The notes under the pieces were generated by a model that saw nothing but the letters and a program-made list of their open reading frames with translations, was not told where the DNA came from and searched no databases. From assembly GCA_022394775.1 (NCBI GenBank), contig JAGFCB010000022.1:32633-96632 (forward strand): a stretch of 64,000 nucleotides of DNA. Reading direction: 5' to 3'. The translations under genes were made by a program, and so were the position numbers. Source of the DNA: Candidatus Poribacteria bacterium. GTDB lineage: Bacteria > Poribacteria > WGA-4E > WGA-3G. Every line of letters starts with the position of its first letter. Position 1 is the stretch's first letter. Shown here one piece after another: positions 20,846 to 50,826 of this stretch.

Positions 20846-21160
20846 TTAAGACTCCGTTTCGGAGGGTGCTTTCGCAGGCGTGCTTGCCGTGTCAATCAGC
20901 GAGAGAGAATCGACGATGCCAACAATAGCGACATCGACAGGCATGCGCCTTCCGGGTATAACGCTGACAGCATCGCCGCCGGTGACGATATAGACGATTT
21001 CGCCGACCCCGGCATCGTTTAACGTGTCAACTGCGACGAGTGGTTCAGAAATGGGGTTCTGTTTTTCGTCTAACGGTTGGACGACGAGGAGACGCGTTCC
21101 TTCTAAAGTTGGGTCTTTTCGCGTTGCGACAACGGTGCCAATAATTTTTGCTAAATCCAT
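20846..21160 (-). CDS. EutN/CcmL family microcompartment vertex (pentamer) protein
   Basis: MDLAKIIGTVVATRK, VAVDT, AGVGE, PVDVAIVGIVD. Confidence 0.93.
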   Translation of the reverse strand: MDLAKIIGTVVATRKDPTLEGTRLLVVQPLDEKQNPISEPLVAVDTLNDAGVGEIVYIVTGGDAVSVIPGRRMPVDVAIVGIVDSLSLIDTASTPAKAPSETES

Positions 21161-22669: not shown

Positions 22670-22678
22670 ATCTTTATA

Positions 22679-22695
22679 TTTCCTTGCGGTTCGGT
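22679..22695 (-). repeat. 17-bp motif ACCGAACCGCAAGGAAA (six identical copies)
   Basis: Copies at 22679, 22815, 25094, 36240, 38138 and 38237, all on the - strand. Confidence 0.9.
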
Positions 22696-22841
22696 TAGGT
22701 GGTTTGATGTTTTTATCTCTCTCCGTTAATCTAGAAGAAACACCCAATCAAATAAACCCGGCACGTTGTTTGGGACTACATATCTTTATATTTTTTTTCG
22801 TTCGATTTTTTATATTTCCTTGCGGTTCGGTTAATAAATCG

Positions 22842-24416
22842 CTAATAGGTAGGGAGTGACACGATGAACGCTGTACCGGTTTCGAGGTTCGCATCAATTT
22901 CAATGCTGCCTTGGTGTTCGGCAAGGATTTTTTGGCTGATGTAAAGCCCAAGTCCGGTTCCCTTCTGTTTAGTGGTATAAAACGGATCGAAAAGCATAGG
23001 AATATCTTCAGTCAGGATTCCGGGACCGTCGTCCTGAACCCGCACACGCACGACTTCCGTATCTGAAAGGTATTCCGTCTGAATTGTCAATGTTCCGCCT
23101 GTATCCATTGCTTCAATAGCGTTGTAAAATAGGTTGAGCAGTACCTGTGTGATTCCGTCTTCGTTTATCTTGAGTTGTGGGCAGTTGCTGTCATATTGCG
23201 TGTCTACTTTAATGGCGTGATGCTCCAATTCGGGGCGACAGGTAGCGAGGCTGCTCCCAAGCAGCTGATGGATGTCAACCTGTTTTGCGGCTTGCATGGC
23301 GGGTTTGCTGAAAGCGAGTAGCTGCTCAATGAACCGATTTAGCCTATCCACCTCTTTGATGATGATTGCGGTGTATTCCTTAATCTCTTTTTGAGAGAGT
23401 TGTACTTTGCCGGAATGGGTTCTAACAGGTGCATCGGCTCCGGTTTCAGTGTGCTGGAGCAATTGGGTACCGAGTCGGATACTCCCCAATGGGTTTCGGA
23501 CCTCGTGTGCGATAGTTCGTACCAATCTACCGAGTGTTGCCATCCGTTCTGATTCGACGAGTGCGTCGATTGTCTGCTGGATTTTGACGCGTTGTGCGAT
23601 GGTTGAGGCGATAATTGTTAGGAGTCGTCGGTCGTCCTCTGCTGAAAATTCATCTGATGCCTTGTCGATTGTCAAAGTCCCAATAACATGTTCGTCTACC
23701 ACGATTGGGATACACCAGAAAGCGATAATATCCTTAGATTCGACGCGTTCTGGCTCGAAAAGTTTAACGTAACTGCGTGGACGCCGGGTTTGCGGGACAC
23801 CGATGGCTTTGCCGGAGGTGAGTACCTGTTTTTGAATGTCTTCCATCTGGTCATCTGTGCCACGCTTCATCTCAGCCGGAGTGAGTCCTAAGACGGCTTC
23901 TACGGAAGTGACTACCTTCCCCTTATCGTAGAGATGTAAAGCGCCACGGTATATGCCGAGTCGTTTGGACAGAATTTCAATGATGCGCTGGAAGAGTCCC
24001 TTTAGCTCAAGATCGGTATTTGCCGCTTGGCTCACTTCAAAAAGTGTGGAGATGTCTCGTACCTGTTTTTCTAAATTCGCATTAACGCTGTTAATTTCCT
24101 CTATTTCTTCGACACCGCTACGGCGTTGAGTCTGAAATTGGCGGATGACCCGGATAACACCGAATACGAGGAACGGATAGAGCAGTGCGATAATGATGCT
24201 CTCGGTTTGCTGTGGGTACCGGAAGACGTAGACCCAATTGGCTACCGCTGTGATACCGATCAGGATGTTTTGCCCACGGGGTCGAGCGTATATGACAGCG
24301 AGCATCATCACGCCGTAGTAGGAGTGGCTCGCCGCGGCGTAGTACTCCTGCATCTGGAACAGGTGTGCACTAATATTGATAAGAAATACAAGTAATGCTA
24401 AGAAAAACGTTATCAT
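22842..24416 (-). CDS. Membrane sensor histidine kinase with GAF domain
   Basis: N-terminal TM helices, GAF, H-box AHEVRNPL, N-box NLFYNA, DDGPG, FDPFYTTK, GTGLGL. Confidence 0.92.
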   Translation of the reverse strand: MITFFLALLVFLINISAHLFQMQEYYAAASHSYYGVMMLAVIYARPRGQNILIGITAVANWVYVFRYPQQTESIIIALLYPFLVFGVIRVIRQFQTQRRSGVEEIEEINSVNANLEKQVRDISTLFEVSQAANTDLELKGLFQRIIEILSKRLGIYRGALHLYDKGKVVTSVEAVLGLTPAEMKRGTDDQMEDIQKQVLTSGKAIGVPQTRRPRSYVKLFEPERVESKDIIAFWCIPIVVDEHVIGTLTIDKASDEFSAEDDRRLLTIIASTIAQRVKIQQTIDALVESERMATLGRLVRTIAHEVRNPLGSIRLGTQLLQHTETGADAPVRTHSGKVQLSQKEIKEYTAIIIKEVDRLNRFIEQLLAFSKPAMQAAKQVDIHQLLGSSLATCRPELEHHAIKVDTQYDSNCPQLKINEDGITQVLLNLFYNAIEAMDTGGTLTIQTEYLSDTEVVRVRVQDDGPGILTEDIPMLFDPFYTTKQKGTGLGLYISQKILAEHQGSIEIDANLETGTAFIVSLPTY

Positions 24417-24472
24417 CTTTTAGTTATCAGTTTTCAGGACGATTTTTCTGCGAAAAATCTTTCAGTTATCAG

Positions 24473-25084
24473 TTAAGAGGCGATTTTCAGAAAATTGTTG
24501 AGCATTTTTAGCCCGACGCGTCCGCTCTTTTCGAGATGGAACTGTGTTGCGATGAGATTATCTTGGGCAATCGCGCTACAGAATTCAAGCCCGTACTGCG
24601 TCTTCCCTATCACAATGTCCTCTTTTTTCGGTTCAGGATAGTAGGAGTTGACGAAATAGAAGTGTGCGGGATTCGGGACACCGTGAAAGATGGCGTGTGT
24701 CCTTGTCTGATACACTTCATTCCACCCGATTTGTGGGACTTTTAGCGTCTTTGTGTCTGTTGGGTATTTCTTTACCTGTCCGGTTAGGAGTCCGAGGCAT
24801 TCGGCATCTTCCTCTTCGCTGTGTTCAAAAAGGATCTGGATACCGATACAAATACCGAGCATCGGTTTGCCTGTGCGGTAGAAGTCTGTTAGTACATGAT
24901 TAAGTCCGCGCTTCTGTAACGTTTGCATCGTGGCTTTTGCGGCACCGACACCGGGAAAGATGACGCGATCCGCCGCGAGTATCGTTTCGGTGTCGGATGT
25001 AATCTGATTTTTGTAGCCGAGGTGTGTTAATGCGCGTGCAACGCTGGTGAGGTTGCCTGCGTCATAATCTATAATTGCGATCAC
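24473..25084 (-). CDS. hisH: Imidazole glycerol phosphate synthase glutaminase subunit
   Basis: IIDYDAGNLTSV, PGVGA, GICIGIQ, QFHLEKS. Confidence 0.95.
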   Translation of the reverse strand: MIAIIDYDAGNLTSVARALTHLGYKNQITSDTETILAADRVIFPGVGAAKATMQTLQKRGLNHVLTDFYRTGKPMLGICIGIQILFEHSEEEDAECLGLLTGQVKKYPTDTKTLKVPQIGWNEVYQTRTHAIFHGVPNPAHFYFVNSYYPEPKKEDIVIGKTQYGLEFCSAIAQDNLIATQFHLEKSGRVGLKMLNNFLKIAS

Positions 25085-25180
25085 TCTTTTATATTTCCTT
25101 GCGGTTCGGTTAGGGTTTGTTTAGGGTTTGAAGCACATTTCCGTACATCTATGAAGAAACACCCCAGCAAAACGCCTCCA

Positions 25181-25788
25181 TTTTGCGGCGTACTCGCCCA
25201 TAAGCGATCTGCTTCATTACGGGCTAAGTTTCGTTTTGATTTAGGGTTTTTTCAATTGTTTTATAGAGGTTTACTGTCTCGATGCCAGCAATAGCGGCTT
25301 CGGCACCTTTGTTTCCTGCCTTGATACCGGCGCGTTCGAGTGCTTGCTCTATTGTATCTGTGGTGATGACCCCGTAGATGACTGGGATCCCAGTGTTGGC
25401 AGATAGATGGGAGATCCCCTTCGCGCTTTCGGCGGCAACATAATCGAAGTGGGGTGTCGCGCCTCGGATAACTGCGCCGAGGCAGAGCAGGGCGTCGTAT
25501 TTTTTATTTTCCGCGAGGCGTTTAGCGACTCCGGGAATCTCGAATGCACCCGGTGTCCAAAAGACATCAACTGCATCCAAGTCAACGCCGTGTCGTTTTA
25601 GTGCGTCTAACGCGCCAGCGAGAAGTTTTTCGGTAACGAAGCTATTGAATCGGCTGACAACAATACCGAAAGTGAGACCTTCGGCGATGAGATCACCTTC
25701 GTAGACGTTTGGCATTTTTTTACCTATTAAATCTGGTCACCGTTCCACTACGTTTTGCGGCGTACTCGCCCATAAGCGATCTGCTTCA
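25181..25788. repeat. Identical 36-bp direct repeats flanking ribH
   Basis: TTTTGCGGCGTACTCGCCCATAAGCGATCTGCTTCA at 25181-25216 and 25753-25788. Confidence 0.85.
25224..25715 (-). CDS. ribH: 6,7-dimethyl-8-ribityllumazine synthase
   Basis: [33 protein letters not shown]. Confidence 0.97.
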
Positions 25789-25894
25789 CGGTGGTTTCTG
25801 GTTAAGTTCAAACCGGTCAGGGTTATGAAAGGGTTTCCGAATAATTCAAATTAGGACGTTGTCAACAACTTGATGCCCCATCGCAGACAGAAAT

Positions 25895-27127
25895 TTATTC
25901 CTCGTCGAGGAGGAGGTGTCCAAGTTTGGAACGTTTTGTTTCCAAATATCTGCGATTAAAAGAATTGGGTTTAGTTTGAAGCGGCACCCGCTCAACGATT
26001 TCGAGTCCGTGTCCATCCAATCCTTTGACCTTTTGAGGGTTGTTTGTCATCAGTCGCATTTTTCGGACCCCTAAGTCCGCTAATATCTGTGCCCCGATCC
26101 CGTAATCGCGCAAATCTGCGGGGTATCCGAGGTGTTCGTTCGCTTCGACAGTATCTAATCCATCATTATCTTGTAGTTGATAGGCACGGAGTTTCTCTTT
26201 AAGCCCCATCCCTCTGCCTTCTTGTCGCATGTAGAGCAGCACGCCTCTGCCTTCCGTTTCAATAGTTTGGAGGGCGATTTCGAGTTGCTCGCCACAATCG
26301 CATCTGAGTGAACCAAACACATCGCCGGTGAGGCATTGTGAATGGACGCGGACTAAGAGCGGTGCCGCATCGGCGATATCGCCTTTTGTGAGTGCGATGT
26401 GTGTTCTATCTGTTTCAATGTTCTCGCCTGTTGTATCAGTGCTTTCGTAGGCGTGAAGTTTGAATTCGCCGTGTGCGGTAGGTATATCAGCAGTAGCGAC
26501 GCGTTTAATCAGCGTCTCCGTCTGGCGGCGGTATGCGATTAGGTCAGCGATGGTGATAATTTTGAGTTGATGTTTGGCGGCGAATTCCATTAACTCGGGG
26601 ACACGCGCCATACTGCCGTCCGCGTTGAGTATTTCACAGAGGACACCTGCGGGGTATAACCCAGCCATGCGTGATAAATCAACAGTGGCTTCGGTATGCC
26701 CTGCGCGCCGGAGTACCCCGCCGGGTTCTGCTTCTAAAGGGAAGATGTGTCCGGGTCGAACAAAATCTGAGGGCACAGCATCGGCATCAACAAATTTCTG
26801 TATTGTGTATGCGCGTTCTTGTGCGGAGATCCCGGTTGTTACCTCTTTCGCGTCAATAGTGACAGTGAATGCGGTTTGCATTTGCGCCGTGTTGGCGGCG
26901 ACCATCGGTTGGAGTTCAAGTTCAGCGAGCCGTTCTGAACAGGTGGGTAAACATATCAACCCTCTGCCGTGTGTCGCCATGAAATTAATAGTCTCTGCTG
27001 TCACCTTTTCAGCTGCCATGATGAGGTCGCCTTCGTTTTCACGGTCGGGTTCATCAACGACGATAATCAATTCTCCGTTTGCGATTGCAGAGAGTGCTTC
27101 AGGAATGGTATTAAAATTATTTGGCAT
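25895..27127 (-). CDS. ribBA: Bifunctional DHBP synthase / GTP cyclohydrolase II
   Basis: [50 protein letters not shown]. Confidence 0.97.
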
Positions 27128-27239
27128 AATGGCTATCGGTTATCGGCTATCGGCTGTCGGCTGTCGGTAACAAGAGGTTTCTGATTAACAAAAACCCTCT
27201 TTACCGATTGCTGACTGCTGACTGCCACTCCCCTGACTG

Positions 27240-27911
27240 CTATTCGATGTATCCGTGTTTTGCTAAGAAATTCAGATTGAGTATCTCAGAAGCAGGTTCC
27301 TCAGTCCAATCCTGCTTTATGTTCCCGTTTTTAAGAAGCGTTTCGAGATAACGCGCGATGATGTCAACTTCAAGGTTGACGCTGGCACCGATGCGTTTCG
27401 CGCCTAAAGTGGTCACCTGCTTCGTATGTGGAATCAAGGCGACTTCAAAAGCATCATCAAAGAGACTCGATACGGTTAGACTGATGCCATCGACGGTCAC
27501 GCACCCTTTATATGCGATATAGGGTCTGAGGTTGCGGCTCATCGTCACCTGCATCAGAGAAGCATCGCCTTCGTCTTTCCAAGCGGAGATTGTAGCGACT
27601 TCGTCTACGTGCCCAAGCACGAGGTGTCCGCCGAGTCTATCGCTTAACTGGAGCGAGCGTTCAAGGTTAATTTGTTCACCGACCTTCCGTTCGCCTAATG
27701 TCGTGCGGCGTAGAGTTTCAGCAGATATATCAGCAGTGAACGCCTCCGGTGTCAGTGCCCGGATTGTAAGACAAGCACCGTCAACGGCGATACTATCACC
27801 GACCTTTGCATCGGCGAGGATGTCCCTCGCCTGAATTTCGAGGATGACTCCTTGTGATAGCCGTTGGATATTTCGGATTGTTCCGAGTTCTTCAACGATC
27901 CCGGTGAACAT
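27240..27911 (-). CDS. ribE: Riboflavin synthase (alpha type)
   Basis: N-terminal MFTGIVEE, GDSIAVDGACLT, GGHLVLGHVD. Confidence 0.97.
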   Translation of the reverse strand: MFTGIVEELGTIRNIQRLSQGVILEIQARDILADAKVGDSIAVDGACLTIRALTPEAFTADISAETLRRTTLGERKVGEQINLERSLQLSDRLGGHLVLGHVDEVATISAWKDEGDASLMQVTMSRNLRPYIAYKGCVTVDGISLTVSSLFDDAFEVALIPHTKQVTTLGAKRIGASVNLEVDIIARYLETLLKNGNIKQDWTEEPASEILNLNFLAKHGYIE

Positions 27912-27941
27912 ATTATAGGTACCTCTACCAGTTATCAGTTA

Positions 27942-28080
27942 TCAGTTTCCAGTTATCAGTTAAGAGACCCCTTGTAGTGGGTACAAACCTTGTTACTGCC
28001 ACAAGCATCTTAGTTTTCAGTTTCCAGTTATCAGTTAAGAGACCGCTTGTAGTGGGTACAAACCTTGTTACTGCCACAAG
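27942..28080. repeat. 64-bp tandem duplication between ribD and ribE, containing CAGTTAT heptamers
   Basis: 27942-28005 and 28017-28080 differ at one base; related unit at about 905-955. Confidence 0.85.
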
Positions 28081-28135
28081 AACGGAACTGACAACTCTTC
28101 GCATTTCTTTTAGACAGTTAGGAAACTGAATAGGT

Positions 28136-29236
28136 CTACAGGTACCCTTCTATGAGAAAGTCATCGTCAGGCATCGGTGTGATACGGATGCGTTGTAAAT
28201 GCGGTACATCCTTCAAAGTGGGCACTCCTTCACCCCCGATAGGTCCCGGTGCATTCCGTCCACCGATGAGTTTAGGTGCTACGAAGCACATAACTTTATC
28301 GACGATACCAGCGGCTATAGCGGAGGCATTGATTTCGCCGCCGCCCTCTATTAAGACACTTGTTATCTCGCGTTTTCCCAATGTTTCCATCAAATTCATA
28401 AAACAGACCTTACCGTGCGCAGCTGGTGTCGTTAGCACTTCCGCGCCAGCCTTTTCGAGTGCCTTGATATTCGCCATCGGTGCGTCAGGCGTTACAGCAA
28501 CGATAACACCGGTACTGCTTTCGACGTTGAAAATGCGTGCGTCTGTCGGTGTCCTTCCGTGCGAATCCAGCACAATCCGGGTTGCGTCTTGTCCTTCCCT
28601 ATCTTGAAGTCGGGTTGTCAGTGAAGGATTATCGCGTTCAACTGTGCCTTTACCGACGAGAATCGCATCTACTTCGTCTCGGATCTCATGTCCGCGCAGT
28701 CGCGATGCCTCAGATGTAATCCATTGCGATTCGCCTGCGGTTGTCGCTATTTTTCCATCGAGGCTCATAGCAGTTTTGAGGACAACAAACGGCAGACCGG
28801 TTTGGATGTATTTCTTGTGGACTTCGTTTAATTCCGCTGCTTCGTGCGTACATATACCGACATGAACACGGATGTTGGCTTCCTCAAGTTGGCGAACCCC
28901 TTTGCCTGCGACGCTCGGATTCGGATCGACTTCTGCGATGTAGACGTTCGCGATGCCAGCCTGAATCACAGCCGCTGTGCAGGGCGGAGTGCGTCCCCAG
29001 TGGCAACACGGCTCAAGGTTCGTGTAGAGTGTTGCACCTTTGGCATTTTCACCTGCGGCGTTTAGCGCATGGACTTCGGCATGTGCGGTTCCCGCTTTTT
29101 GATGGTAACCTTCACCAATAACCGTACCGTCTTTTACAATGACTGTGCCAACGAGTGGGTTGGGACTGGTGCGTCCTTTTGCTTGTTTTGCCAACACGAG
29201 TGCGCGTTGCATGAAGGTTATATGTGCTTTGTCCAT
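28136..29236 (-). CDS. ribD: Bifunctional diaminohydroxyphosphoribosylaminopyrimidine deaminase / reductase
   Basis: SPNPLVG, HAEV, LEPCCHWGRTPPC, SLDGKIA, LIEGG. Confidence 0.97.
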   Translation of the reverse strand: MDKAHITFMQRALVLAKQAKGRTSPNPLVGTVIVKDGTVIGEGYHQKAGTAHAEVHALNAAGENAKGATLYTNLEPCCHWGRTPPCTAAVIQAGIANVYIAEVDPNPSVAGKGVRQLEEANIRVHVGICTHEAAELNEVHKKYIQTGLPFVVLKTAMSLDGKIATTAGESQWITSEASRLRGHEIRDEVDAILVGKGTVERDNPSLTTRLQDREGQDATRIVLDSHGRTPTDARIFNVESSTGVIVAVTPDAPMANIKALEKAGAEVLTTPAAHGKVCFMNLMETLGKREITSVLIEGGGEINASAIAAGIVDKVMCFVAPKLIGGRNAPGPIGGEGVPTLKDVPHLQRIRITPMPDDDFLIEGYL

Positions 29237-29386
29237 GCTGAAAACCGAAAACCTTTGCTTGTATAGTATATCATATTTTTCTGGGAAATCAAATTATTTA
29301 TTAAAGTTTCGCTGTTGCTTTTAAGCAGCCCTCTTGCAGGCGGGGTTTCAAACCCCGCTTGCAGGGCTGGGAAATCAAATTATTTA

Positions 29387-29878
29387 TTAAAGTTTCGCTA
29401 TTGCTTTCAAGGATTCGAGGACTTCTGTCTGTTGGACGAGATCGAATTGATGTGTGCCGATATACATATATCTGATAACCCCTGTTTTGTCAATGACAAA
29501 CGTTGACGGACGTGCGATGTTGTAAGCCTCAAGACTGAGCCAGTGGTAGACGCCGTAGTTTTTGATGACGTTCCGCGTTTTGTCTATTAGCAGTGGGAAT
29601 GTGATGCCGTTTTTATCGGCATAGCCGCGGAGTTCGCGGGGCCACTGCCCAGCGATGGCAAGTGGTGTTGCTGTATGCTCGGCGTAGGCTTCAACATTTT
29701 CTTGGACTGCCGACAACTGACGGCGGCTGTTCGGTCACCATGTTCCTCTGAAGAATGTTAGCACGATGTGTTGCGCGTCTCGGTACGCTTCAAGCGAGAT
29801 GTCCACTCGTTGGTGTGATGACAGTGTGAATAGGGGCGCGGTATCGCCGATGTTGAGGATTTTGTTTTTTCGCGGCAT
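29387..29878 (-). CDS. AhpC/TSA (peroxiredoxin-like) redoxin, probable selenoprotein with UxxS motif
   Basis: Frame from ATG 29878 reads GDTAPLFTL...IVLTFFRGTW-TGA-PNSRRQL and continues into the listed 109-aa ORF (FPLLID, RPSTFVIDKTGVIRY); TGA at 29737-29735 aligns with the Cys of WCPxC. Confidence 0.82.
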
Positions 29879-29884
29879 GGGCAT

Positions 29885-29913
29885 ATTGTATGGGATATTA
29901 GGGTTGCTGTCAA
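29885..29913 (-). promoter_or_regulatory. sigma70-like promoter, probably leaderless transcript
   Basis: TTGACA-17-TACAAT, followed 6 nt later by ATG 29878. Confidence 0.65.
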
Positions 29914-30003
29914 GTTTTTAGCGGTTGGCAGTGTAAATATGAGATGGCGTGAGGGATGTCGCGAGGTAGAAGATCACGAGCATAGGAGGATATGAAGCAG
30001 AAA

Positions 30004-30056
30004 GATCGCGAGTACAGATTGAGCCTACAAAGATCGCGAGCACAGCTCGCTCCTAC
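30004..30056 (-). repeat. GTAG-type REP cluster (GTAGGAGCGAGCTGTGCTCGCGATC)
   Basis: Full copy 30032-30056, degenerate copy 30004-30028; same REP at 33847-33959 (three) and 41605-41673 (two). Confidence 0.85.
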
Positions 30057-30082
30057 AGAAGAGGGGTTGGATTCTATAGCCT

Positions 30083-33000
30083 TTACTTTTCCTCTTGATT
30101 GGTCGAAGAAGGGAGTGCATACATGCTTCGCCGCACTTTCACAATTTCACCAGCATCGACAAGCCGTTTGAGTTCGTTTTTTGTGGAACCTGGATGTCCT
30201 TCAATGACATCAATGAGTTCAGATGTTTTTTTCTCGCCTGTGGCAAGAAGTGCGAAGATCTGATCACGGAGCGGGACGCGGAGGGGTTTCCCGCCTCTAA
30301 ACTTCATCAATATTCGATTGGCTTGGCTTCTGGAGATGCCCAAGACGTGTTCTACTTCATCTCTATGGGATTCGGCAGTGAGAGTGTCGCGTTCTGCCTC
30401 AAACTGCTCACGCGTAGCGATGGTTTCAGGGAGTTTGTCTAAGCCACCGGCGACCTCAAAATCTTCCCAATCAAAAAGCAACGTTTCAGGACGATCAGTG
30501 ATATCAGGGAGGGGTACACTCGCAAGCAGGACTACGGTTTTATTGGGTAAGCGGTTCAAGCCGGCGCGTCCGATAACCTGTGAAAATAAGCCTACAGATT
30601 GCCGTTCATGGACGGACCGAATGCGTGCGTCTTTATAGATACCGGATACTGCTTCACCATCATAAGAGAGGGGTTTTTCGTCGTCTCCGAACTGGATCTG
30701 CGATTGTCTCCAAACGTGTTCTGGTGTCCAGAAAGGTCCCCCAACGATCCAAATGACATCTGCCGTTTCAAAAGCGGAGGTTTCTAATGTTGTTAGGTGC
30801 TTAAAGCCCTTAACGAAACAGACGTTCTCTTTTGCTGCGATGTGCTTTAAATGTAGTTTTACCGGTGCGCAGCAGATAATTGCATGCCGAACGTTCGGGT
30901 CCTTCTCAATTTCGGCTTGGATATGGAGAAAAAAGCGTTGCCCCATTTCGGACATGCCGAGTACCCGCCAGTCGGTATCGTAGTTTAAAAGCGTATGTCG
31001 TGGATAGATGCCTGTTCGGATCTGAAAGACTCGATTTCCGGGTACCCATGCTGTCGGTTTGACGTGATGGACTTCAATTTCGGCATCGGGGAACGCTCTA
31101 CGCAAATCGCGTTCAGAAAGCATTGATGACATAAACAAGAGTCGTTTGACGTTCGGATGCAACACCGGCGGCACCCAGAACTTTAACTGTGTCTCATCCC
31201 ATAACATGGGAGCATCGGCATCCCGTAAGTAATATGCGAAGAAACGCGTGAGTTGATGCCAAAATGTCCAGTTCAGATCCTGACAGACAGTTGGAAAGTC
31301 TTGAATTTTCGCAGTAGTTGAGGTATCCAAGATCCCGAATTCAATGGCTTGTGTAATTGAGATAGGGATATTCAGGTCTTGGTTCAATTGAAAAGCCTCA
31401 AGTTCAAAGGCCGGTACTTCTTTTAGGGTGAGTCTATTCGCAGCGTCGGTATCCAAGGGAATGTAGGCAGCGGTGCCGCCGTCAAACTCGATAGCAAAAC
31501 GCGCTAACATCTTTCCGGTTTGATCATCAACAAATTCGCGGGGTACGACTTTAGCGGTTATATTGACTTGCCCCATTTGCTGGGCGAGCGTTGCTTCTTG
31601 TCCTTGAAAGGCTTGCACGACGGCTCGGACGCGCCTGATAGGATTCTCATCCATTTCGCCTTTAATCTCTAAAGCGTTTAGTAAAGCAGTGGTAAAGTTC
31701 CCTAAGGCGTACCCGCGCCAATTCAGGCACCAATTTTCCAAGGTATCTTTTGATATTTTACACTGTATAAACAGCCTACCTGCGTGTGCTTCATCGATGA
31801 CACAAAGTCGTTCTGTGCTGTCCACAGGTTCAAGAATTTCAGCTGCCATTTTTGCGTGTTCTGGATCCAAAAACAGCCGAATAGGATTCAATATTTGTAC
31901 TGCGGCATTTTTTAGCGCGGTAGATTGGGATAAATATCCACGTTGTTGGCATTCAGTATAGACGGGACACTGTGGACAAATACTCTCATTCGGATTTCCA
32001 CCTTTCTCTTCGAGTGCCTTACACCGCTCTGGATCCTCGCAGACATTCCCGTGTTGAAAGGGTGTCGCCATCCGTATCTCGGCAGGTATATCTTTCACTT
32101 TTTGCCACAAGTAATTCCGGGGTCTGAGGTGTACAACCGATGACACATTTCGATCCCGAAAGTGTTGTTCGAGTTTTTGCGTCACCTCGAATTCCGCGGT
32201 TAGACTAACAGTGCCGCCGTCAAGGGCATGGGTCGCCGCAGCGTAGCTTTTACCGCCACCGTCTTCGGCAATAAGTCCAAGAATCCGTACATCCCGATTA
32301 AAAACGCTCTGCATCTGGGTAGCACTTTCTTCAAGCGTTCCATAAACCTTATTCTGCGTTTCTTTTTTAGGTAGGACTGGAGAGGGTCGTTTTATTCCCA
32401 ATGGGCTGAGCTTGGCTTCGCGTACGGCAAGAATATTATCGGTTACAGGTAATCCAGTGGTCGGTATTGCTGGCAGAATACCGGTATCATCCCAGATATT
32501 TGTTAGCGGTGTCGCTTCCATTGGTAGCCCAGTATCAGGCATGGAAGCGCGAACCCAGACTTCTGTATCTTGCTCCCATAGCGAAACGTGTGCATCGCCA
32601 AAACCGCTGTCGGATTGACGCCACTGGTAAATGCCGTCCTTTTGTTGAAGATAAGAAAACCCGCGCTTCAAAAACGCCTCTTTTGCGAGGTTAAGGTTGT
32701 GCGATCCGAAGGACATTGGCACGATAGGCATCTCTTGAACGGCAGCTTCCAAGTCGCTTTCTTCAAGCGATATTGGTTGGTGAAGTGCAGCCCGAAGCGT
32801 ATCAATAGGTGCCAAGAGTACCTCTTTGGCAATGATAGGTGGATCTAAGAGGTTTCCCATCAGAATTTCGTGGCGGCCATCCCAACAACTGTATCCTTTA
32901 TCGCCTAAGATTTCAAGCAGATGCGCGCGATGGTATGGATTTTCGGAGGTCGGTGTGTGTTTGTAAATATACTGTTTGGCTTCATTGGTATTGGGATGGA

Positions 33001-33496
33001 GATAATTCAGGACTCTGCAGGAGAAGCGCAATCCACCAGACTTTGATAGCGTCAATAGTGGGTTCGCGACAGCGTTAAGGAGTGCCTCAACACAGGTGAG
33101 AACGGCATCGGGAGCAGCACAAATAGCGTCATACTTAAACTCGATGTCGTGCCACTGGGCACCCTCACATTCTGAGGGGACACCGGTATATACTTGGATT
33201 CCCCATGATTGATGCCAGAATACCCCAGTCCAGTCTTTTCTGCCTTGGCGTTTCAAGAATCGTTCTTCCTCAAAACCTGACAGACCGTGGTCGTAATCAG
33301 GGACGCGCCTCATCGGCATGAAAGAGATGTTCGCCTGCTCAAGTCTATAAAGGTTTACAGGGTATCTCCAAGCACAATAGGCGGTAAAATTATAAGGAAG
33401 CGCTTTATAGAGTGCTGGTGTTACTCTTGTCTTACGCTGTCGAAGGGGTTTTTTGTGTCGTTGATGACAACGTTGAATGATATCTTTTAAATTCAT
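30083..33496 (-). CDS. Large hypothetical protein: Prim-Pol-like N-terminus, Cys cluster, SF2 helicase-like core, C-terminal HTH/wHTH
   Basis: GIQVYTGVPS, WHDIE, TLSKSGGLR, LEILGDKGY; AEDGGGKS, VIDEAH, QVIGRAGLNR; CEDPERC...CPQCPVYTEC; C-terminal LKRLVDAGEIVKVRRSMY. Confidence 0.7.
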   Translation of the reverse strand: MNLKDIIQRCHQRHKKPLRQRKTRVTPALYKALPYNFTAYCAWRYPVNLYRLEQANISFMPMRRVPDYDHGLSGFEEERFLKRQGRKDWTGVFWHQSWGIQVYTGVPSECEGAQWHDIEFKYDAICAAPDAVLTCVEALLNAVANPLLTLSKSGGLRFSCRVLNYLHPNTNEAKQYIYKHTPTSENPYHRAHLLEILGDKGYSCWDGRHEILMGNLLDPPIIAKEVLLAPIDTLRAALHQPISLEESDLEAAVQEMPIVPMSFGSHNLNLAKEAFLKRGFSYLQQKDGIYQWRQSDSGFGDAHVSLWEQDTEVWVRASMPDTGLPMEATPLTNIWDDTGILPAIPTTGLPVTDNILAVREAKLSPLGIKRPSPVLPKKETQNKVYGTLEESATQMQSVFNRDVRILGLIAEDGGGKSYAAATHALDGGTVSLTAEFEVTQKLEQHFRDRNVSSVVHLRPRNYLWQKVKDIPAEIRMATPFQHGNVCEDPERCKALEEKGGNPNESICPQCPVYTECQQRGYLSQSTALKNAAVQILNPIRLFLDPEHAKMAAEILEPVDSTERLCVIDEAHAGRLFIQCKISKDTLENWCLNWRGYALGNFTTALLNALEIKGEMDENPIRRVRAVVQAFQGQEATLAQQMGQVNITAKVVPREFVDDQTGKMLARFAIEFDGGTAAYIPLDTDAANRLTLKEVPAFELEAFQLNQDLNIPISITQAIEFGILDTSTTAKIQDFPTVCQDLNWTFWHQLTRFFAYYLRDADAPMLWDETQLKFWVPPVLHPNVKRLLFMSSMLSERDLRRAFPDAEIEVHHVKPTAWVPGNRVFQIRTGIYPRHTLLNYDTDWRVLGMSEMGQRFFLHIQAEIEKDPNVRHAIICCAPVKLHLKHIAAKENVCFVKGFKHLTTLETSAFETADVIWIVGGPFWTPEHVWRQSQIQFGDDEKPLSYDGEAVSGIYKDARIRSVHERQSVGLFSQVIGRAGLNRLPNKTVVLLASVPLPDITDRPETLLFDWEDFEVAGGLDKLPETIATREQFEAERDTLTAESHRDEVEHVLGISRSQANRILMKFRGGKPLRVPLRDQIFALLATGEKKTSELIDVIEGHPGSTKNELKRLVDAGEIVKVRRSMYALPSSTNQEEK

Positions 33497-33578
33497 GCTC
33501 TATTTCACTCAAGTAATGTTCTATCAAGACAATACAATAATACAAATTAAACTGGAAAATCTATGTCCTCATGCGAGA

Positions 33579-33607
33579 ATTATACATGAACTCGATTTAC
33601 ATGTCAA
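33579..33607 (-). promoter_or_regulatory. Consensus sigma70 promoter of the 1137-aa gene
   Basis: TTGACA-17 nt-TATAAT, with the -10 box about 80 nt upstream of ATG 33496. Confidence 0.75.
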
Positions 33608-33846
33608 GTTAAATTTGTGTATATTTCAGGACGATTTATAGTGAAACCTGTAATTATAATAAATCCCCTAATTACCTATACACCAACGGGGAGGCGAGGT
33701 TCCAAACCTCGCCAGCGGTGGGGGGATGTTTGTTCCCTGATGAGATGTAAACTTATTTTTGGATTTTGCTATAATTGGGGGTGTTTCATTATTAGCGGAG
33801 GAGACCTCGTACCGCAAACTGTATGAAGATTAAATAAATCATTAGG

Positions 33847-33959
33847 GATCGCGAACACAGCTCGCTCCTATAATAAAAGAAGGATCGCGAGCACAGCTCG
33901 CTCCTACAGAGGAAGACAGCACCAGCTTTTGCAAAATCGTCAGCGCAGCTCGCTCCTAC
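33847..33959 (-). repeat. GTAG-type REP cluster (three copies)
   Basis: Variants of GATCGCGAGCACAGCTCGCTCCTAC at 33847, 33883 and 33942. Confidence 0.85.
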
Positions 33960-34001
33960 GCGGGAAATTCCAACCCGCTATCTACTATAGATGTACTGCT
34001 T

Positions 34002-35126
34002 TTACATCAATTCGACGAAGATTTCGTTTGCGAGAAAGAGTCCACGGGATGTGAGTCGGAGATGCGTGGCGGTTCGTTGGAGTAATTGTAGGTCTATCCA
34101 TTTTTTAAGAATATCCTCGAAAGCGACTTCGATTTCTTCGGCGAAACGGTTTCGGTAATCTTCAAGAGAGATGCCTTCCCGTTTGCGAAGTGCGAGCATG
34201 AGGGTTTCCGCTTTTTCCGCGTGTCCGATCAGGCGTTCTGTGTCGGCGATGGGTTTGTTGCATTTGGAGAGTTTGTTAATGTAAGGTGCAATGCCTCGAA
34301 TATTGGTGTAACGGACACCGTTGACATATCCACACGCGCCTGCGCCGAGTCCGATACAGGGTTGGTTGTTCCAGTAGATGAGATTGTGCCTTGCATAACG
34401 GTTGGGTTTGGCGAAGTTACAGATCTCGTAGTGTGTGTACCTCTGCGCGGTCAAGGTCTCGATTGTGTATTGGAACATATCCGCTTCGGTGTCTTCAGAC
34501 GGGAGCTGGAGTTCACCGGCTTGCCACCGTTGATAAAATGGGGTCGTTTCCTCCATGACGAGGTTGTAGGCTGAAATGTGTTCGGGATCGAGAGAAATTA
34601 CTTCGTTTAGTGTGTGGTGCCATGCTTCCATCGCCTGATTGGGAAGTGCGAAGATGAGATCAATGTTGATGTTTTGAAAGTGATGTTCGCGGGCGAGATG
34701 GTAACTTTCGAGGAACTCGGCAACGGTGTGGATTCTGCCTAACTGTTTCAGGGTCTCATCTTGCATGGCTTGCAGACCGAAACTCAAGCGATTCACACCG
34801 TAGTCTCGCATGACGCTAAGTTTTTCGGTATCTACTGTGCCGGGATTGCATTCTACAGTGATTTCAGCATCTGGTGTTATTTGGAAATGCTGCTGGATGT
34901 CGGTGAAGAGCTGCGCTAAGGCATCGGCAGCGAGGATGGAAGGGGTGCCGCCGCCGATGAAAATCGTTTGTAGGGGTTCGGTTTCTGAAGCGTAAAGTTC
35001 CATCTCTGTGCGGAGCGCGGTTAAGTATGCTTTCGCCTGTTCTTTGTGGAAGGCATAAGTATTGAAAGCGCAGTAGTAGCATTTCGTTGCGCAGAATGGG
35101 ATATGGATGTATATGGAAGATGCCAT
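34002..35126 (-). CDS. hemW: Radical SAM heme chaperone HemW (HemN-like)
   Basis: YIHIPFCATKCYYCAF, GGGTPS, YEICNFA, HNLIYW. Confidence 0.92.
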   Translation of the reverse strand: MASSIYIHIPFCATKCYYCAFNTYAFHKEQAKAYLTALRTEMELYASETEPLQTIFIGGGTPSILAADALAQLFTDIQQHFQITPDAEITVECNPGTVDTEKLSVMRDYGVNRLSFGLQAMQDETLKQLGRIHTVAEFLESYHLAREHHFQNINIDLIFALPNQAMEAWHHTLNEVISLDPEHISAYNLVMEETTPFYQRWQAGELQLPSEDTEADMFQYTIETLTAQRYTHYEICNFAKPNRYARHNLIYWNNQPCIGLGAGACGYVNGVRYTNIRGIAPYINKLSKCNKPIADTERLIGHAEKAETLMLALRKREGISLEDYRNRFAEEIEVAFEDILKKWIDLQLLQRTATHLRLTSRGLFLANEIFVELM

Positions 35127-35127
35127 A

Positions 35128-36231
35128 TTATTCTGTAAATTCCAATCCGATTCGGATGGCTGCGCCTGTGTCTGCGTAAGAGAAGGCTTCGTTAATGTCG
35201 CTGAACGGGAAGGTATCGGAGATAATTTTGTGGAACGGATACTTGTCGCGCGTGCGCACTAAGAAGTCAAGTGCTCGCGGGATGACCCAAGGTTCGTAGA
35301 CGATGACACCGCGAATCGCTTTGCTACACCGGACGATGTTCCCTGGATCAATCTCTGTAGGGAATCCGAGGTTGATGTTTCCGATCCAGAGGTAACGTCC
35401 ACCCCACCGAAGCATCTCTATACCTTCAGCAAGAACGCGTGGCGAACCGACGAACTCCGCGACGAGGTCCGCGCCGATGCCGCCTGTTTGGTCGAGAACG
35501 TATTGGACTCGTGAGTTCATGTCAATTTCGTCGACGTTGAGGGTTTCATCTGCCCCGAACTCCTGTGCCAAAGTAAGACGTGCAGGCAGTCGATCAAGAA
35601 CGATAATCTTACCGGCGCCCATCTCACGTGCGACGGCTGTCGCGTAGAGCCCGAGTCCACCCGCACCTTGGATAACGACGGTATCGCCGAGGGTGATACC
35701 GATCTGGTTTAGCCCGTAGATGACTTCGGATAAAGCGCAGTTGATGGGTGATACGAGTGCGTCTGAGAGTTCGTCTGGAACTTTGAACACCCAATGTCCG
35801 GGTTTCATGTAGTAGTATTCACCGTAGGCACCGTGGAAATGCGGTGGCTGCTCGCTGGAGACACCGAGCCAATCTCTATAGCGGTTCGGACATCCCGGTT
35901 TTCCGTTGAGGCACATCCAACAGTGTTGGCAGGGTTTGAAGTAGGAATAAGCGATCCGGTCGCCTTCGGTGAGCGGTTGTCCGGTGCTATCTGTTGTGAT
36001 ATTGCGTCCCATCGCTTCGATTGTGCCGATCATTTCGTGTCCGAGTACTTGCGGGACACCGCTCTCAATTTTGGGGCCGTGTCCGCGCCAGAAGTGTAGA
36101 TCGGAGCCGCAGATATTTGCCATCCGGATTCGTACGCGTATGTCGTCGGGGGTGACGGATGGGACTGGGTATTCCCTGAATTCCATCGGGGTTTGCGGTT
36201 GTGTAAAAATGGCGACTTTCCCTGTTTTCAT
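35128..36231 (-). CDS. Zinc-binding alcohol dehydrogenase (MDR family)
   Basis: ICGSDLH, LGHE, CxxCxxC...C, GAGGLG. Confidence 0.92.
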   Translation of the reverse strand: MKTGKVAIFTQPQTPMEFREYPVPSVTPDDIRVRIRMANICGSDLHFWRGHGPKIESGVPQVLGHEMIGTIEAMGRNITTDSTGQPLTEGDRIAYSYFKPCQHCWMCLNGKPGCPNRYRDWLGVSSEQPPHFHGAYGEYYYMKPGHWVFKVPDELSDALVSPINCALSEVIYGLNQIGITLGDTVVIQGAGGLGLYATAVAREMGAGKIIVLDRLPARLTLAQEFGADETLNVDEIDMNSRVQYVLDQTGGIGADLVAEFVGSPRVLAEGIEMLRWGGRYLWIGNINLGFPTEIDPGNIVRCSKAIRGVIVYEPWVIPRALDFLVRTRDKYPFHKIISDTFPFSDINEAFSYADTGAAIRIGLEFTE

Positions 36232-36418
36232 TTTTTAACTTTCCTTGCGGTTCGGTAAGGTGGATCTGAAATTTGAGGGGCTGCTCCGTAGACTCGCTTT
36301 CCACTTCGTTTCAAGCTGTATCCTTTTCCCGAAAATTTGATGTTCAACTCCATAGATTCGGCACAAACGGTGTTTTGGAATTCTCAACTGTGCCTTTGCG
36401 GTTTAGAATTGCCTTACC

Positions 36419-36811
36419 TTAATACTCATCAAAATTGACGACTTTCCAGCGTCCATCGATCTGTTCGGTGTGGATTACGACTTTTCGGGTATGCGTTGTC
36501 GCGCCACGGATTTCGATAGTGAGTTTGTAGTTGAATAGCACGTGGGTTGCTTCTTCTTCTTTATCGATGAATTCGTATTCCATCTTCGGTACTTCGTCAA
36601 ATTGTTGCCCTGGCACGCGGACTTCATTGACGCGCGCAATTTCGTCTTCGAGTTTTTGTGCGGCGAGTCCGTGGCTGAGTTGTAGGGATGCCATTTGGTC
36701 TGCTCGCTGGTAATAGTTATAGATAAAATCTTCGCAGACAGCTTGCGGCGTATTCCTATTTGCGCATGCGAGTATTAACAGAGTAGACAGTAGGAGGTAT
36801 TGTGGTTTCAT
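36419..36811 (-). CDS. Small hypothetical lipoprotein (NTF2-like fold suspected)
   Basis: Start MKPQYLLL overlaps the upstream stop; lipobox ILAC; TPQAV and terminal DGRWKV. Confidence 0.65.
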   Translation of the reverse strand: MKPQYLLLSTLLILACANRNTPQAVCEDFIYNYYQRADQMASLQLSHGLAAQKLEDEIARVNEVRVPGQQFDEVPKMEYEFIDKEEEATHVLFNYKLTIEIRGATTHTRKVVIHTEQIDGRWKVVNFDEY

Positions 36812-38127
36812 TTCTTTTTTGCGCGAATCATAGCGACGTTGAAGATCGGACGTTCGTACCCGTGTGCCGGACTGTTCACGACACCGCCTAAAGCCCATAG
36901 CGTTGAAGAGCTGCCGCCATCGAAGTTGATGGCGTGTTCGATACCGAGTTGGCTGAAAAATTTTCCCATATCATAGAGGGTCATTCCCATGCTATATCCG
37001 TGCTGTCTACCATCGACAGCGATAAGGAAAAGTTTATCATCATTAAACCCTAATGCACTGCGCGGATGGCGGGAAGCACCATTACTGTGTGCGTATGCGC
37101 TGCGTCCTCGTGTCGCGCCAAATTCGACGAGCTCCGGTTCAATTTTACCATCACGGACAAGCCGTAGGTTTCCGCCGATTCCTTGCCGAACGCGTTGCCA
37201 TTTTTTCGGTGTAAGGGCGATCTCTAATGTACCTTTCGTAGCTGCTGTGAGTTTCTTGGTCCAGTCGCGTGCTGTGCGCGACTCGATCGCGAGCACTACA
37301 CCGTCAGCGGGGATGTTACTGTTGCCGTACCGATTAACCTCGGTGACGACAAATCTACTTGTATATTTTCCGGTGATTGGCAGCGAGAGTTTTTTAAGCG
37401 TGAACTCGTAGCAGCGGCGTGTCAAAGTCCGGCGTCCGAAGCGTGGTGTGAAGAGGACGACGGGTGCCAACGAGTTACAGATCTGGTTGATGGCGTTAAT
37501 AGGCAGCATATTCGCGTCGCTATTGCCAATACGAATATGTCCATTTAGCTGCACTCTGTCCAAAAGAAACTCGCCGTCAGGGGTGACACCAAAGCTGGTT
37601 TCGCCCCATGGAGACGGCGGCGAATATCCCCATCTATCATGAGCGATGGGTATGCTGATAAGTTCACCGTTTTGGATATGGAGATTAAAGATCATGCCGC
37701 CGCGTCCGTAGGAGTCGCCACGAATCCCAAAACTTCCATTAACGCCAGCGAGCGGTAGGACGTTTTTATTTATCAGTTGCCTGAGTGTCCGCGTAACAGT
37801 TTCACGTTCTAAGATCTGGTCATTGGCAAGTTTGACATCGAATTGTAGGTTCTGTGCCGTTCGGTCCATCTCTGCGACGTAGACGGCTGCCCCTCCTACC
37901 CACCAGTAGCGGTGGAGTCGGAACCCGTCGGGCCATTGTTTGCGTTGGAGTTCATCGCGCTTTCTGACGGTGTCAAGGCGTGCCTCTGGCTGCTTGCTCC
38001 GTGAAGCATTGCCACGGAAAAAGGGGTTTTCAACTGCCCGCAGTGCGCCAATTATGAGAACGGAGAGCAGAATGAGTACACACACCATCGTTAATCGGGT
38101 GAGGTAAGGTCTATTTTCTTGCGTCAT
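36808..38127 (-). CDS. Phosphodiester glycosidase (NAGPA) family protein
   Basis: AGVNGSF, HPRSALG, VDGRQ, AINFDGGSSS. Confidence 0.88.
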   Translation of the reverse strand: MTQENRPYLTRLTMVCVLILLSVLIIGALRAVENPFFRGNASRSKQPEARLDTVRKRDELQRKQWPDGFRLHRYWWVGGAAVYVAEMDRTAQNLQFDVKLANDQILERETVTRTLRQLINKNVLPLAGVNGSFGIRGDSYGRGGMIFNLHIQNGELISIPIAHDRWGYSPPSPWGETSFGVTPDGEFLLDRVQLNGHIRIGNSDANMLPINAINQICNSLAPVVLFTPRFGRRTLTRRCYEFTLKKLSLPITGKYTSRFVVTEVNRYGNSNIPADGVVLAIESRTARDWTKKLTAATKGTLEIALTPKKWQRVRQGIGGNLRLVRDGKIEPELVEFGATRGRSAYAHSNGASRHPRSALGFNDDKLFLIAVDGRQHGYSMGMTLYDMGKFFSQLGIEHAINFDGGSSSTLWALGGVVNSPAHGYERPIFNVAMIRAKKK

Positions 38128-38285
38128 TCCTTTTAACTTTCCTTGCGGTTCGGTGAGGCGGGTCTATGATTTCGGAGTGCCTCTCCGTAGCCTCGCATGC
38201 GCCGGTGTTGCATGCTATATTTCCTGATTTTTCAGATTTCCTTGCGGTTCGGTGAGGCGGGTCTGTGATTGCAGAAACCCGATAT

Positions 38286-41560: not shown

Positions 41561-41750
41561 ACAGAGCCATTCAATTGTCAGTTCTTTATGATTTTCGCGG
41601 TGGTATCGCGAGCACAGCTCGCTCCTACTGAGGACACTGCCACCCGAAGATCGCGAGCACAGCTCGCTCCTACGGTGAAGAGACTTTAGGTAGAAAATCA
41701 CAATTACCGGAATTCAGTGGTTTGGAGTTGACAGGTCTTTTTTTTTGGAT

Positions 41751-50483: not shown

Positions 50484-50826
50484 GATGATAAATTCCTTGT
50501 AAAAATGATTTCTTTTGTTTATGATATTTGATACAATGTTTTCAATCGTGTCGGAACAGCCACAAGCGGCAATGACATCTCAATGCACATGAAAACTATG
50601 TAATGCGACCTCTTAGGTTCGTATAGTACATAATATAATATTAAACATTAAAAATAAACAAGTCAATTTGACAGGATTTACGCAACCCCTCTCCAGGCGA
50701 GGTTTAAAACCTCGCTTGCGGCGTACGGGTTGTAGGTTCTCCTTAGGAATTGGGTAAGCCCTATTTGAGATAAGACGCAGCGGTTATCGGTTGTTCTTAA
50801 GTGCTGATAGCTGCCTGCCATTTATT

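Follow-up and report, generated by a model that had tools for sequence, protein, structure and literature searches.

Why should one identical string of 17 nucleotides stand directly before genes that share no function? The question is raised by a 64-kb window (the whole stretch of DNA analyzed, 64,000 nucleotides of contig JAGFCB010000022.1 from a Candidatus Poribacteria bacterium), in which the 17-mer ACCGAACCGCAAGGAAA recurs. The initial annotation of this DNA had proposed a mobile leader that supplies or gates translation initiation, or else the site of an RNA-binding regulator or processing nuclease. We find that the 17-mer is the 3′, best-kept block of a mosaic intergenic repeat of ~95-125 nt, which always has the same orientation as the downstream gene, with its 3′ module adjoining the start codon. 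We hold with moderate confidence that this repeat is a lineage-restricted, dispersed, co-transcribed and portable translation-initiation leader.

A pattern search allowing up to three mismatches returned six matches in the window, all of them exact and all on the minus strand, so that the six identical same-sense copies reported at first are real:

22679-22695, 22815-22831, 25094-25110, 36240-36256, 38138-38154 and 38237-38253, minus strand: copies of the 17-mer (pattern search)

Shuffling predicts 0.20 copies, and none of 100 shuffles reached six. Read on the minus strand against the list of open reading frames (ORFs) and Pfam, four copies stop 8-10 nt short of a start codon (22669, 25084, 36231 and 38127), just as annotated. 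The remaining two lie 10-32 nt past the stop of the upstream gene. Their position after that stop had been correctly described, and only the spacing needs amendment: the distance to the start-proximal second copy is 136 nt on the histidine kinase side and 99 nt on the PALP side, where 100-135 nt had been given.

The bias extends to the whole genome. The window's assembly (5.9 Mb in 331 contigs, 47% G+C, 93.8% complete) contains 66 exact 17-mers, where its composition predicts about 0.0006, and 204 sites when up to three mismatches are allowed; the 10-nt core AACCGCAAGG is present in 194 exact copies, and the 3′ modules number ~300. A start codon, defined as a codon opening an ORF of at least 60 amino acids (aa), lies 8-16 nt downstream of 111 of the 194 cores, and at exactly 12 nt in 71. 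The same criterion was satisfied by 14/194 antisense controls (7.2%) and by 284/5000 random intergenic positions (5.7%); the genome-wide check of strand and spacing that had been proposed at the outset thus reveals a strong bias. ATG opens 98 of the 111 core-led genes, TTG 8 and GTG 5. Tandem pairs account for another 28 of the 194 cores, each being the upstream copy of its pair; the two copies are 25 nt apart in six pairs and 78-136 nt apart in the others.

The genes led by the element are diverse. Pfam matches were found for 52 of a random 60 of the 111, and the families are unrelated; those sampled include LpxI, DapB, IlvD, IlvN, ribosomal protein L25, EngA, four enolase-superfamily enzymes, transporters, two extracytoplasmic function (ECF) sigma factors, NuoD, NuoH, a 4Fe-4S NuoI-like subunit and NuoL. 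One nuo operon alone has four copies, before nuoD, nuoI, nuoL and nuoM, and copies in the window sit between histidine kinase and response regulator genes and between ribH and hisH. Of the genes next upstream of intergenic copies, 107 are co-directional and 12 divergent; in the background, a co-directional neighbor is present at ~76% of gene starts (crude gene set).

The architecture of the larger repeat was read from printed copies and from A1, an alignment that brings together 41 copies of many species, on which a covariance model (R1) was built. Conservation around the core spans about -50 to +21. The 5′ part starts with YAG or CGTAG, followed by a covarying stem-loop and then by the purine box GGNTNTACGGAGAGG; the 3′ part consists of a variable A-rich stretch of ~25 nt, CACCTN, ACCGAA-CCGCAAGG-AAA (the 17-mer) and NTTAAAAA. 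The stem-loop has a conserved loop, G[TA]AAYGNARTGGAG or GCAACAACGGCGC, and the best-kept 5′ positions are the AAC of this loop and the TACG after the stem. Some copies have an optional module, TTTTGCTTGGGTGTTTCTTC, between the stem-loop and the TACGG box, which explains the two subfamilies of flanks noticed initially: they are real, and are modules of one larger repeat (hairpin and TACGGAG box, with or without the insert). The 5′ stem is paired in 94.1% of cells versus 80.7% in shuffles (0/500 reach the observed value), double changes number 47 versus 12.4 in shuffles, and controls in which the stem was slid are 26-45% paired. R1 recovers exactly six copies in the window, four of them full and two reduced to the 3′ module:

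36228..36336, minus: full copy before the zinc alcohol dehydrogenase (ADH) gene, ATG 36231 (R1 89 bits, E 8e-19); YAG and stem-loop ~36296-36318, TACGGAG box ~36284-36290, 17-mer 36240-36256, CCGCAAGG 36243-36250, A-rich tail 36232-36239
38126..38235, minus: full copy before the NAGPA-domain gene, ATG 38127 (R1 69.1 bits, E 4.5e-14); stem-loop GCATGC...GCATGC, 17-mer 38138-38154
38226..38273, minus: partial copy, 3′ module only (17-mer 38237-38253 and tail); R1 38240-38273, model positions 61-94, E 0.0019
22667..22792, minus: full copy with an inserted TTTGATTGGGTGTTTCTTC module before the NtrC-like gene, ATG 22669 (R1 51.5 bits, E 6.9e-10); 17-mer 22679-22695
22803..22841, minus: partial copy, 3′ module only (17-mer 22815-22831); weak R1 match 22803-22928, E 2.5e-05
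25082..25196, minus: full copy with an inserted TTTTGCTGGGGTGTTTCTTC module before the hisH-like gene, GTG 25084 (R1 44.9 bits, E 2.5e-08); 17-mer 25094-25110

By Pfam, the gene at ATG 36231 has ADH_N and ADH_zinc_N domains, that at ATG 38127 is a NAGPA phosphodiester glycosidase (NAGPA), that at ATG 22669 is a response regulator with a sigma-54-activator domain (Response_reg, Sigma54_activat, HTH_8), and that at GTG 25084 is a class-I glutamine amidotransferase (GATase), whose upstream neighbor, ribH-like (25224-25715), matches DMRL_synthase. The PALP-enzyme gene (38286-39395) is followed, just past its stop, by one partial copy, which precedes the corresponding full copy by 99 nt; the histidine-kinase gene (22842-24416) is followed, 10 nt past its stop, by the other, which precedes its full copy by 136 nt, and ATATAAAGATATGT ends both copies at this second site. 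A start-stop mini-ORF (ATG-TAG) at tandem junctions was discarded as a general feature, being present only in the window copy. No curated family matches the elements in the Rfam search that the initial annotation had suggested: Rfam 15 gave no match in the window at gathering score and, at E up to 1 over 22500-38400, two weak matches, neither of them on an element.

A few individual loci deserve mention beside this general layout. Before the trpB-like gene at G000 C150:6829 (L405), an ATG follows 6 nt after a TACGGAGA box, and the element is translated in this single copy; the box is the predicted Shine-Dalgarno (SD) sequence, and the 17-mer encodes ..NEPQG.. in the predicted frame. At C221 (~13346-13388), the 3′ module is partly duplicated, in frame and over 42 nt, which lengthens the N-terminus by 14 residues; duplications of this type also occur in two other species (L041, L090). 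A conserved leader peptide within the element was considered and rejected: GTG, TTG or ATG frequently follows the purine box, but TTC or GTC does so no less frequently. The 17-mer is invariant at the nucleotide level and therefore reflects no coding constraint.

Some element-led genes have no ATG, GTG or TTG at the usual place (G000 C52:10444 [L406], C31:28740, C95:33113, C149:17895, C170:33084, C212:1595 and C324:1527). At C52 the frame opens just 27 nt upstream and the first canonical start is inside the Rossmann GxGxxG motif, so that initiation at an ATT, ATA or CTG in the element tail seems to be required. In several of the others, translation from the ATT of ATTAAAAA would give M(I)-K-N/K...

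What was there before the repeat? The ribosome-binding sites of ordinary genes in this genome are of the AAGGAG type, and 7-8 nt separate the end of AAGGA from the ATG. At nuoI, relatives G002, G008 and G006 have gaps of ~23-33 nt carrying TTGGAGG-N10-ATG; in our genome and in G018, differently built full elements have tails adjoining the same ATG, and in G007 only the 3′ half of the element is kept and the native SD is gone. At nuoM, AAGGAGGA is retained in G002, G008 and G007, and the element is found in our genome. We examined 29 loci orthologous to the ADH gene and located the start in 24; CCGCAAGG lies upstream in 10 of these, a one-base variant in 3, and neither in 11. The element is present at 1/5 NAGPA orthologs, at 0/5 hisH orthologs and at 1/5 NtrC-like orthologs among the relatives, the last (G018) with six tandem copies of 118 nt. 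At the NtrC-like gene, four metagenome loci are all filled with varying copy number, and one relative has three copies. Coding DNA is 73-88% identical between the compared species, and exact insertion junctions are unreadable because the flanking intergenic DNA has diverged too far. Since some cores left unclassified (“other”) sit just upstream of a retained native GGAGG site, the order of events suggested is insertion first and loss of the native site later. The proposal of a mobile leader supplying initiation is thus supported in part: the repeat is dispersed and co-oriented, its presence varies between species and it occupies the place of GGAGG. Against the proposal stand the failure to find a mobility enzyme and the weakened SD reading of AAGGA (see below).

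To describe the distribution we refer to the genus of our genome as g1; g9, g10, g12, g13 and g14 are sister genera in one Candidatus Poribacteria family. The exact 17-mer is present in 24/24 other g1 genomes (3-56 copies each) and also in g14, and is absent from all 16 genomes searched in the order's other families. A relaxed 3′-module pattern gave 197 matches in our genome and 397 in G051, 0-2 in 20 g9/g10 genomes and 0-3 in 39 other-family genomes, with 0-2 matches for a reversed-pattern control. R1, for which at most ~94 candidates per genome were scored, matched in 16/16 g1 genomes, 3/3 g12 genomes (14-39 each), 1/1 g14 (40), 1/1 g13 (one), 2/17 g9 (one each) and 0/2 g10; within g1, our genome included, 14/17 had 85-95 matches, G100 had 36 and G097 had 1. 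The g12 homologue reads ATCGAA-CGCCTTGCG-AACAACAAAAAN-ATG, with a mini-hairpin CGC-YTY-GCG in place of CCGCAAGG, the same 12-nt distance to the ATG and no purine-rich SD-like run; g12 copies have GTAG and stems of 8-9 bp. A scan of one genome per species returned at least 126 loci, 72 of the 80 matches listed being titled Candidatus or uncultured Poribacteria. When a 14-mer of the motif was searched in a viral collection, one locus among the 119 matches listed (of at least 119) was in an element-like context. By these scans, the repeat is confined to certain genera within a single Candidatus Poribacteria family.

How might the block next to the start codon work? The initial annotation saw in it a CC-GCAA-GG mini-hairpin with a GNRA loop, overlapping an SD-like AAGGA. 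Our assembly lacks the 16S 3′ end, and the tail was therefore read in 8 relatives, in which it is canonical, ends GATCACCTCCTTTCT and could pair with AAGGA alone. Extended pairing with 16S rRNA was rejected, since inspection found no convincing complementarity beyond AAGGA. The SD-like reading loses ground on position as well: AAGGA ends 11 nt before the ATG, versus the peak of 7-8 nt in other genes, and the g12 homologues have no SD-like bases at this place. The hairpin fares better. Tabulating the 8-mers at the core position in our genome, anchored on the flanks, gave:

CCGCAAGG, 271 copies: reference form
CCACAAGG, 11 copies: loop change, no longer GNRA
CTGCAAGG, 8 copies: stem, U-G wobble kept
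CTGCAAAG, 8 copies: stem, compensated U-A
CCGTAAGG, 4 copies: loop, still GNRA
CCCCAAGG, 3 copies: loop change, no longer GNRA
TCGCAAGG, 2 copies: stem, wobble kept
CCGCGAGG, 2 copies: loop, still GNRA
CCGCAAGA, 2 copies: stem broken

Because changes in the stem mostly preserve pairing on the sense strand and g12 has a different hairpin at the same place, the variants support the mini-hairpin as a probable RNA feature. Since g12 also keeps the 12-nt spacing with its other hairpin and without SD-like bases, the conserved feature may be the mini-hairpin together with the A-rich spacer. Separately, two structured-looking leaders (G000 C76 ~50540-50700 [L368] and C27) follow a perfect TTGACA-18-TATAAT promoter and have a hairpin, CGTAACC-GCAA-GGTTACG, that holds the same 10-nt core within longer complementary arms; this leader had no Rfam match at E up to 1.

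In the leader reading that we favor, the repeat would be transcribed, either as an intercistronic stretch of an operon or behind an ordinary promoter, and would always have the same sense as the gene that follows. The 3′ module would serve as the translation-initiation region of that gene and replace its native SD region, and would consist of a two-base-pair GNRA mini-hairpin with an SD-like AAGG, 12 unstructured A-rich bases and the start codon. The 5′ stem-loop probably has a role either in RNA (processing, or shielding the upstream cistron at its 3′ end) or in the spread of the repeat. Copies would multiply by some duplicative route and by local tandem duplication, and would be gained and lost between species.

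Several points weigh against this reading. Neither a start codon nor a tandem partner accounts for 55 of the 194 cores. A translation role leaves the near-invariant ACCGAA unexplained, and AAGGA is a weak SD, a 5-nt match to the canonical 16S tail, with the distance and the g12 difference just described. The consensus fold is only -3.15 kcal/mol, the repeat outside the 5′ stem is predicted to be unstructured, and whole single-copy folds are no more stable than shuffles (z -0.84 to +0.71). The core variants are related by descent within the genome, so that their counts are not independent events, and the gene neighborhoods come from our own crude ORF-based gene set. We identified no mobility enzyme and no inverted repeat common to the termini of the four window copies, and the 5′ module may contain a promoter of a type other than sigma-70.

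An alternative that we regard as possible and rather unlikely is that the invariant block serves mainly to be bound or cut by a trans-acting factor peculiar to the lineage (an RNA-binding protein, a small RNA or an endoribonuclease); ~4-8% of genes would then be wired into one post-transcriptional circuit, and the leader role would be secondary. The 17 nt are near-invariant compared with flanks that average 70% column identity, and the exact 17-mer persists in every searched g1 genome despite the divergence of coding DNA (73-88% identity). The block has no palindromic symmetry and falls in a region predicted to be unpaired; at 12 nt from the start codon, it is so placed that a factor bound there could block or free the initiation site. 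A published parallel exists in the TAACTGA repeats of Beggiatoaceae, which are interpreted as regulator sites just upstream of starts (PMC4679880). However, no candidate factor was found and the led genes have no common function; the g12 sequence differs at this place, so that the factor would need to have co-evolved; and many species have lost or altered the block at orthologous sites. Three ANGGA-like motifs occur in the element (loop, box and 17-mer), and a CsrA/Rsm site was considered and rejected: the CsrA family (PF02599) was not found in our genome at its 93.8% completeness, and the control genomes gave matches.

A more far-reaching idea, to which we give little credence, is that the GC-clamped hairpin (CC-GCAA-GG, or CGC-YUY-GCG in the sister genus) with its 12 A-rich nt is a portable, SD-independent “ruler” that fixes the start, by docking or stopping the 30S subunit or by recruiting a lineage-specific factor. 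If true, such a signal would perhaps be strong enough for genes whose sole possible start is AUU, AUA or CUG, and a mobile repeat would have rewired initiation for 4-8% of genes in an uncultivated symbiont lineage.

Does the repeat bring its own promoter? Between window positions 21000 and 39500, perfect TTGACA-17-TATAAT sites and terminator-like hairpins delimit neighboring units, and 0 of 21 sigma-70-like promoter sites lie inside an element. A 10-of-12 promoter match occurs in 2.9% of the 69 co-directional intergenic regions (120-300 nt long) that have the element, versus 18.5% of the 779 that do not, and in the divergent regions C120 and C305 a canonical promoter lies upstream of the element. 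The window scan, the depletion of promoter matches and the intra-operon copies together argue against a sigma-70 promoter within the element. We therefore infer, from the co-directional and intra-operonic copies, the lack of an internal sigma-70 site and the upstream promoters at divergent sites, that the element is transcribed as part of an mRNA without a sigma-70 promoter of its own. Two near-perfect sigma-70 promoters were recorded on the minus strand of the window, at 33579-33607 (12/12) and 29885-29913 (11/12), before a 1137-aa gene and the unit after it; judged by sequence, they show canonical promoters to be in use in this genome.

AAC and CGT motifs mark ECF promoters. The repeat might accordingly be imagined as a promoter cassette of the Neisseria REP2 type, in which the 5′ module is an ECF-like sigma promoter (GNAAC in the stem-loop, then the TACGG box ~19 nt later) and the rest is a 5′ untranslated region (UTR) with a ribosome-binding site. 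The AAC of the loop and the post-stem TACG would then be the best-kept 5′ positions for this reason, some copies in divergent regions have no sigma-70 promoter in the scan (e.g., C5 and C126), and 2/60 sampled led genes encode ECF sigma factors, although this number shows no clear enrichment. We nevertheless consider the cassette very unlikely. The stem around the putative -35 covaries, which a double-stranded promoter does not need; copies are found within the nuo operon and between kinase and regulator genes; G007 has only the 3′ half before nuoI; C120 and C305 have canonical promoters upstream of the element; and divergent neighbors are under-represented (12/119 versus ~24% expected).

A low probability also attaches to a selfish element of the repetitive extragenic palindromic (REP) type or of the MITE (miniature transposable element with inverted repeats) type, without host function, whose start-adjacent copies persist as the least harmful insertions in operons because they bring their own initiation signals. 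Copy number varies widely (3-56 exact 17-mers; only 1 R1 match in G097 and 36 in G100), tandem arrays and 25-nt partial duplications occur, a YAG/GTAG-like 5′ start precedes a palindromic stem as in REP elements, and presence or absence at orthologous sites does not follow the rough species grouping. Yet at least two differently built copies (our genome and G018) occupy the same nuoI site at the same spacing, and G007 has lost the native SD there and still keeps the 3′ module, as though selection were maintaining it. Terminal inverted repeats were looked for and not found. Y1 transposases (PF01797) gave 6 matches in our genome, and scanning five of these loci over ±3 kb found no hairpin module; the Y1 homologue tested, which represents one lineage, is present in 17/21 other g1 genomes and 11/22 g9 genomes, a distribution that does not track the repeat. 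A link to REP-associated tyrosine transposases (RAYT)/IS200 was rejected on these grounds. The idea of integron attC sites was assessed by inspection only, without an integrase search: copies are dispersed over many contigs, and the position matching the G of GTTRRRY varies among A, G, C and T.

The intergenic DNA of the genus seems unusually rich in distinct repeat families. One is a separate, classical REP-like family, GTAGGAGCGAGCTGTGCTCGC, with GTAGGA followed by the palindrome GCGAGC-NNN-GCTCGC, which lies just after gene ends in the window (30036-30050, 33887-33901, 41608-41622 and 41653-41667), where its palindrome scores as terminator-like, and at ~48 places genome-wide (96 strand-wise matches, 46 of them preceded by GTAGGA). 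Another is a shorter sister leader, in which the same loop motif tops a covarying stem of greater length, with CCAGGAGGCCATAGTTAAAAAAATG (a canonical SD) or GACCAGATTTAATAGTTAAAA coming right after it and neither the TACGG box nor the 17-mer present. It makes up 14 of the 30 hairpin modules listed in our genome (e.g., C46, C98, C99, C120, C220, C242 and C250), adjoins the ATG in 11/14, and is also present in relatives G006 and G007. In G018, G007 and metagenome loci L402/L403, a recurrent intergenic palindrome ..CCCGGGGAATGCC-N-GGCATTCATACCGTTGATT.. is found together with simple repeats such as CAGTTATCAGTTATC in the same intergenic regions.

If the leader reading is correct, one lineage of sponge symbionts, which is uncultivated, has the same leader before hundreds of genes, internal complex I cistrons and housekeeping genes among them, where it would replace canonical SD sites. 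This would amount to a natural experiment on the interchangeability of translation-initiation regions, and would offer a candidate SD-independent initiation signal (mini-hairpin and A-rich spacer) that could be tested in reporters. The repeat may also serve as a practical marker and annotation aid in Poribacteria genomes, for start-codon calling and binning. Should a dedicated factor read the invariant block instead, the copies would form a very large mobile post-transcriptional regulon. To our knowledge, repeats carrying expression signals exist only as rare curiosities like REP2, with a couple of dozen copies.

How does the repeat relate to known systems? No description of it was found in Poribacteria literature on repeats and motifs, as far as that literature was covered short of full texts. 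The TAACTGA heptamer direct repeats of Beggiatoaceae, cyanobacteria and Bacteroidetes lie a few nt upstream of starts (PMC4679880). Like our repeat, they are abundant, stand before functionally unrelated genes and are read as post-transcriptional signals; they are arrays of a simple 7-nt unit, whereas our repeat is a ~100-nt mosaic with a structured 5′ module and one invariant block. TAACTGA/AACTGAA arrays just upstream of starts were also observed here, in 38 sets in our genome and before hisH in G002 and G008 (L179, L180); the phenomenon of PMC4679880 is thus apparently present in this Poribacteria lineage too, separate from the leader repeat.

MITEs share with the repeat that they are short, non-coding, multi-copy, intergenic, polymorphic and able to bring regulatory signals; the Correia element of Neisseria is mentioned as a MITE that alters expression when co-transcribed (PMC3184786). 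Our repeat differs in having no terminal inverted repeats and in its fixed orientation and distance to the start codon. No consistent target-site duplication was seen at the junctions examined, where filled and empty pairs are too diverged to give an exact junction.

REP elements and bacterial interspersed mosaic elements (BIMEs), the RAYT-associated repeats of enterobacteria and pseudomonads, may, like the present repeat, stabilize upstream mRNA. They resemble the repeat in the YAG/GTAG-like start and covarying palindromic stem (CGTAG or YAG precedes the stem in most copies), in the mosaic structure with optional modules, in tandem arrays and in the placement between co-transcribed genes. In contrast to them, the repeat is strictly sense to the downstream gene, has a long non-palindromic 3′ leader at the start codon and forms no inverted pairs, and no hairpin module flanked the five Y1 loci scanned, nor did the one Y1 lineage tested follow the distribution of the repeat.

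Neisseria REP2 comes closer. It is 120-150 bp long, occurs in 26 and 23 copies in two genomes, lacks terminal inverted repeats, has 5′ stem-loops, is said to contain a promoter and an ATG, and marks a contact-induced gene set; Borrelia plasmid IR sequences are similar to it (PMC3184786). The two repeats are alike in being dispersed, intergenic and ~100-150 bp long without terminal inverted repeats, in the stem-loop near the 5′ end and the ribosome-binding region, and in the fixed orientation directly upstream of functionally different ORFs. The Poribacteria repeat is indeed a multi-copy, sense-oriented intergenic repeat that lies directly upstream of ORFs and carries the ribosome-binding region, and the review raises for REP2 the same question of origin, from the 5′ UTR of a gene (PMC3184786). 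Unlike REP2, compared here by description and not by sequence, it has ~200-400 3′ modules per genome, about ten times more copies; it is mostly intercistronic, the ATG usually lies outside the unit, there is no functional theme, and it has an invariant hairpin block. A promoter of its own was not found, which holds for sigma-70-type promoters only. Within what these sources describe, REP2 is the closest known class: the principle of a dispersed repeat that bears expression signals is known, and the scale of its use in this lineage, together with a possibly SD-independent core, is unusual.

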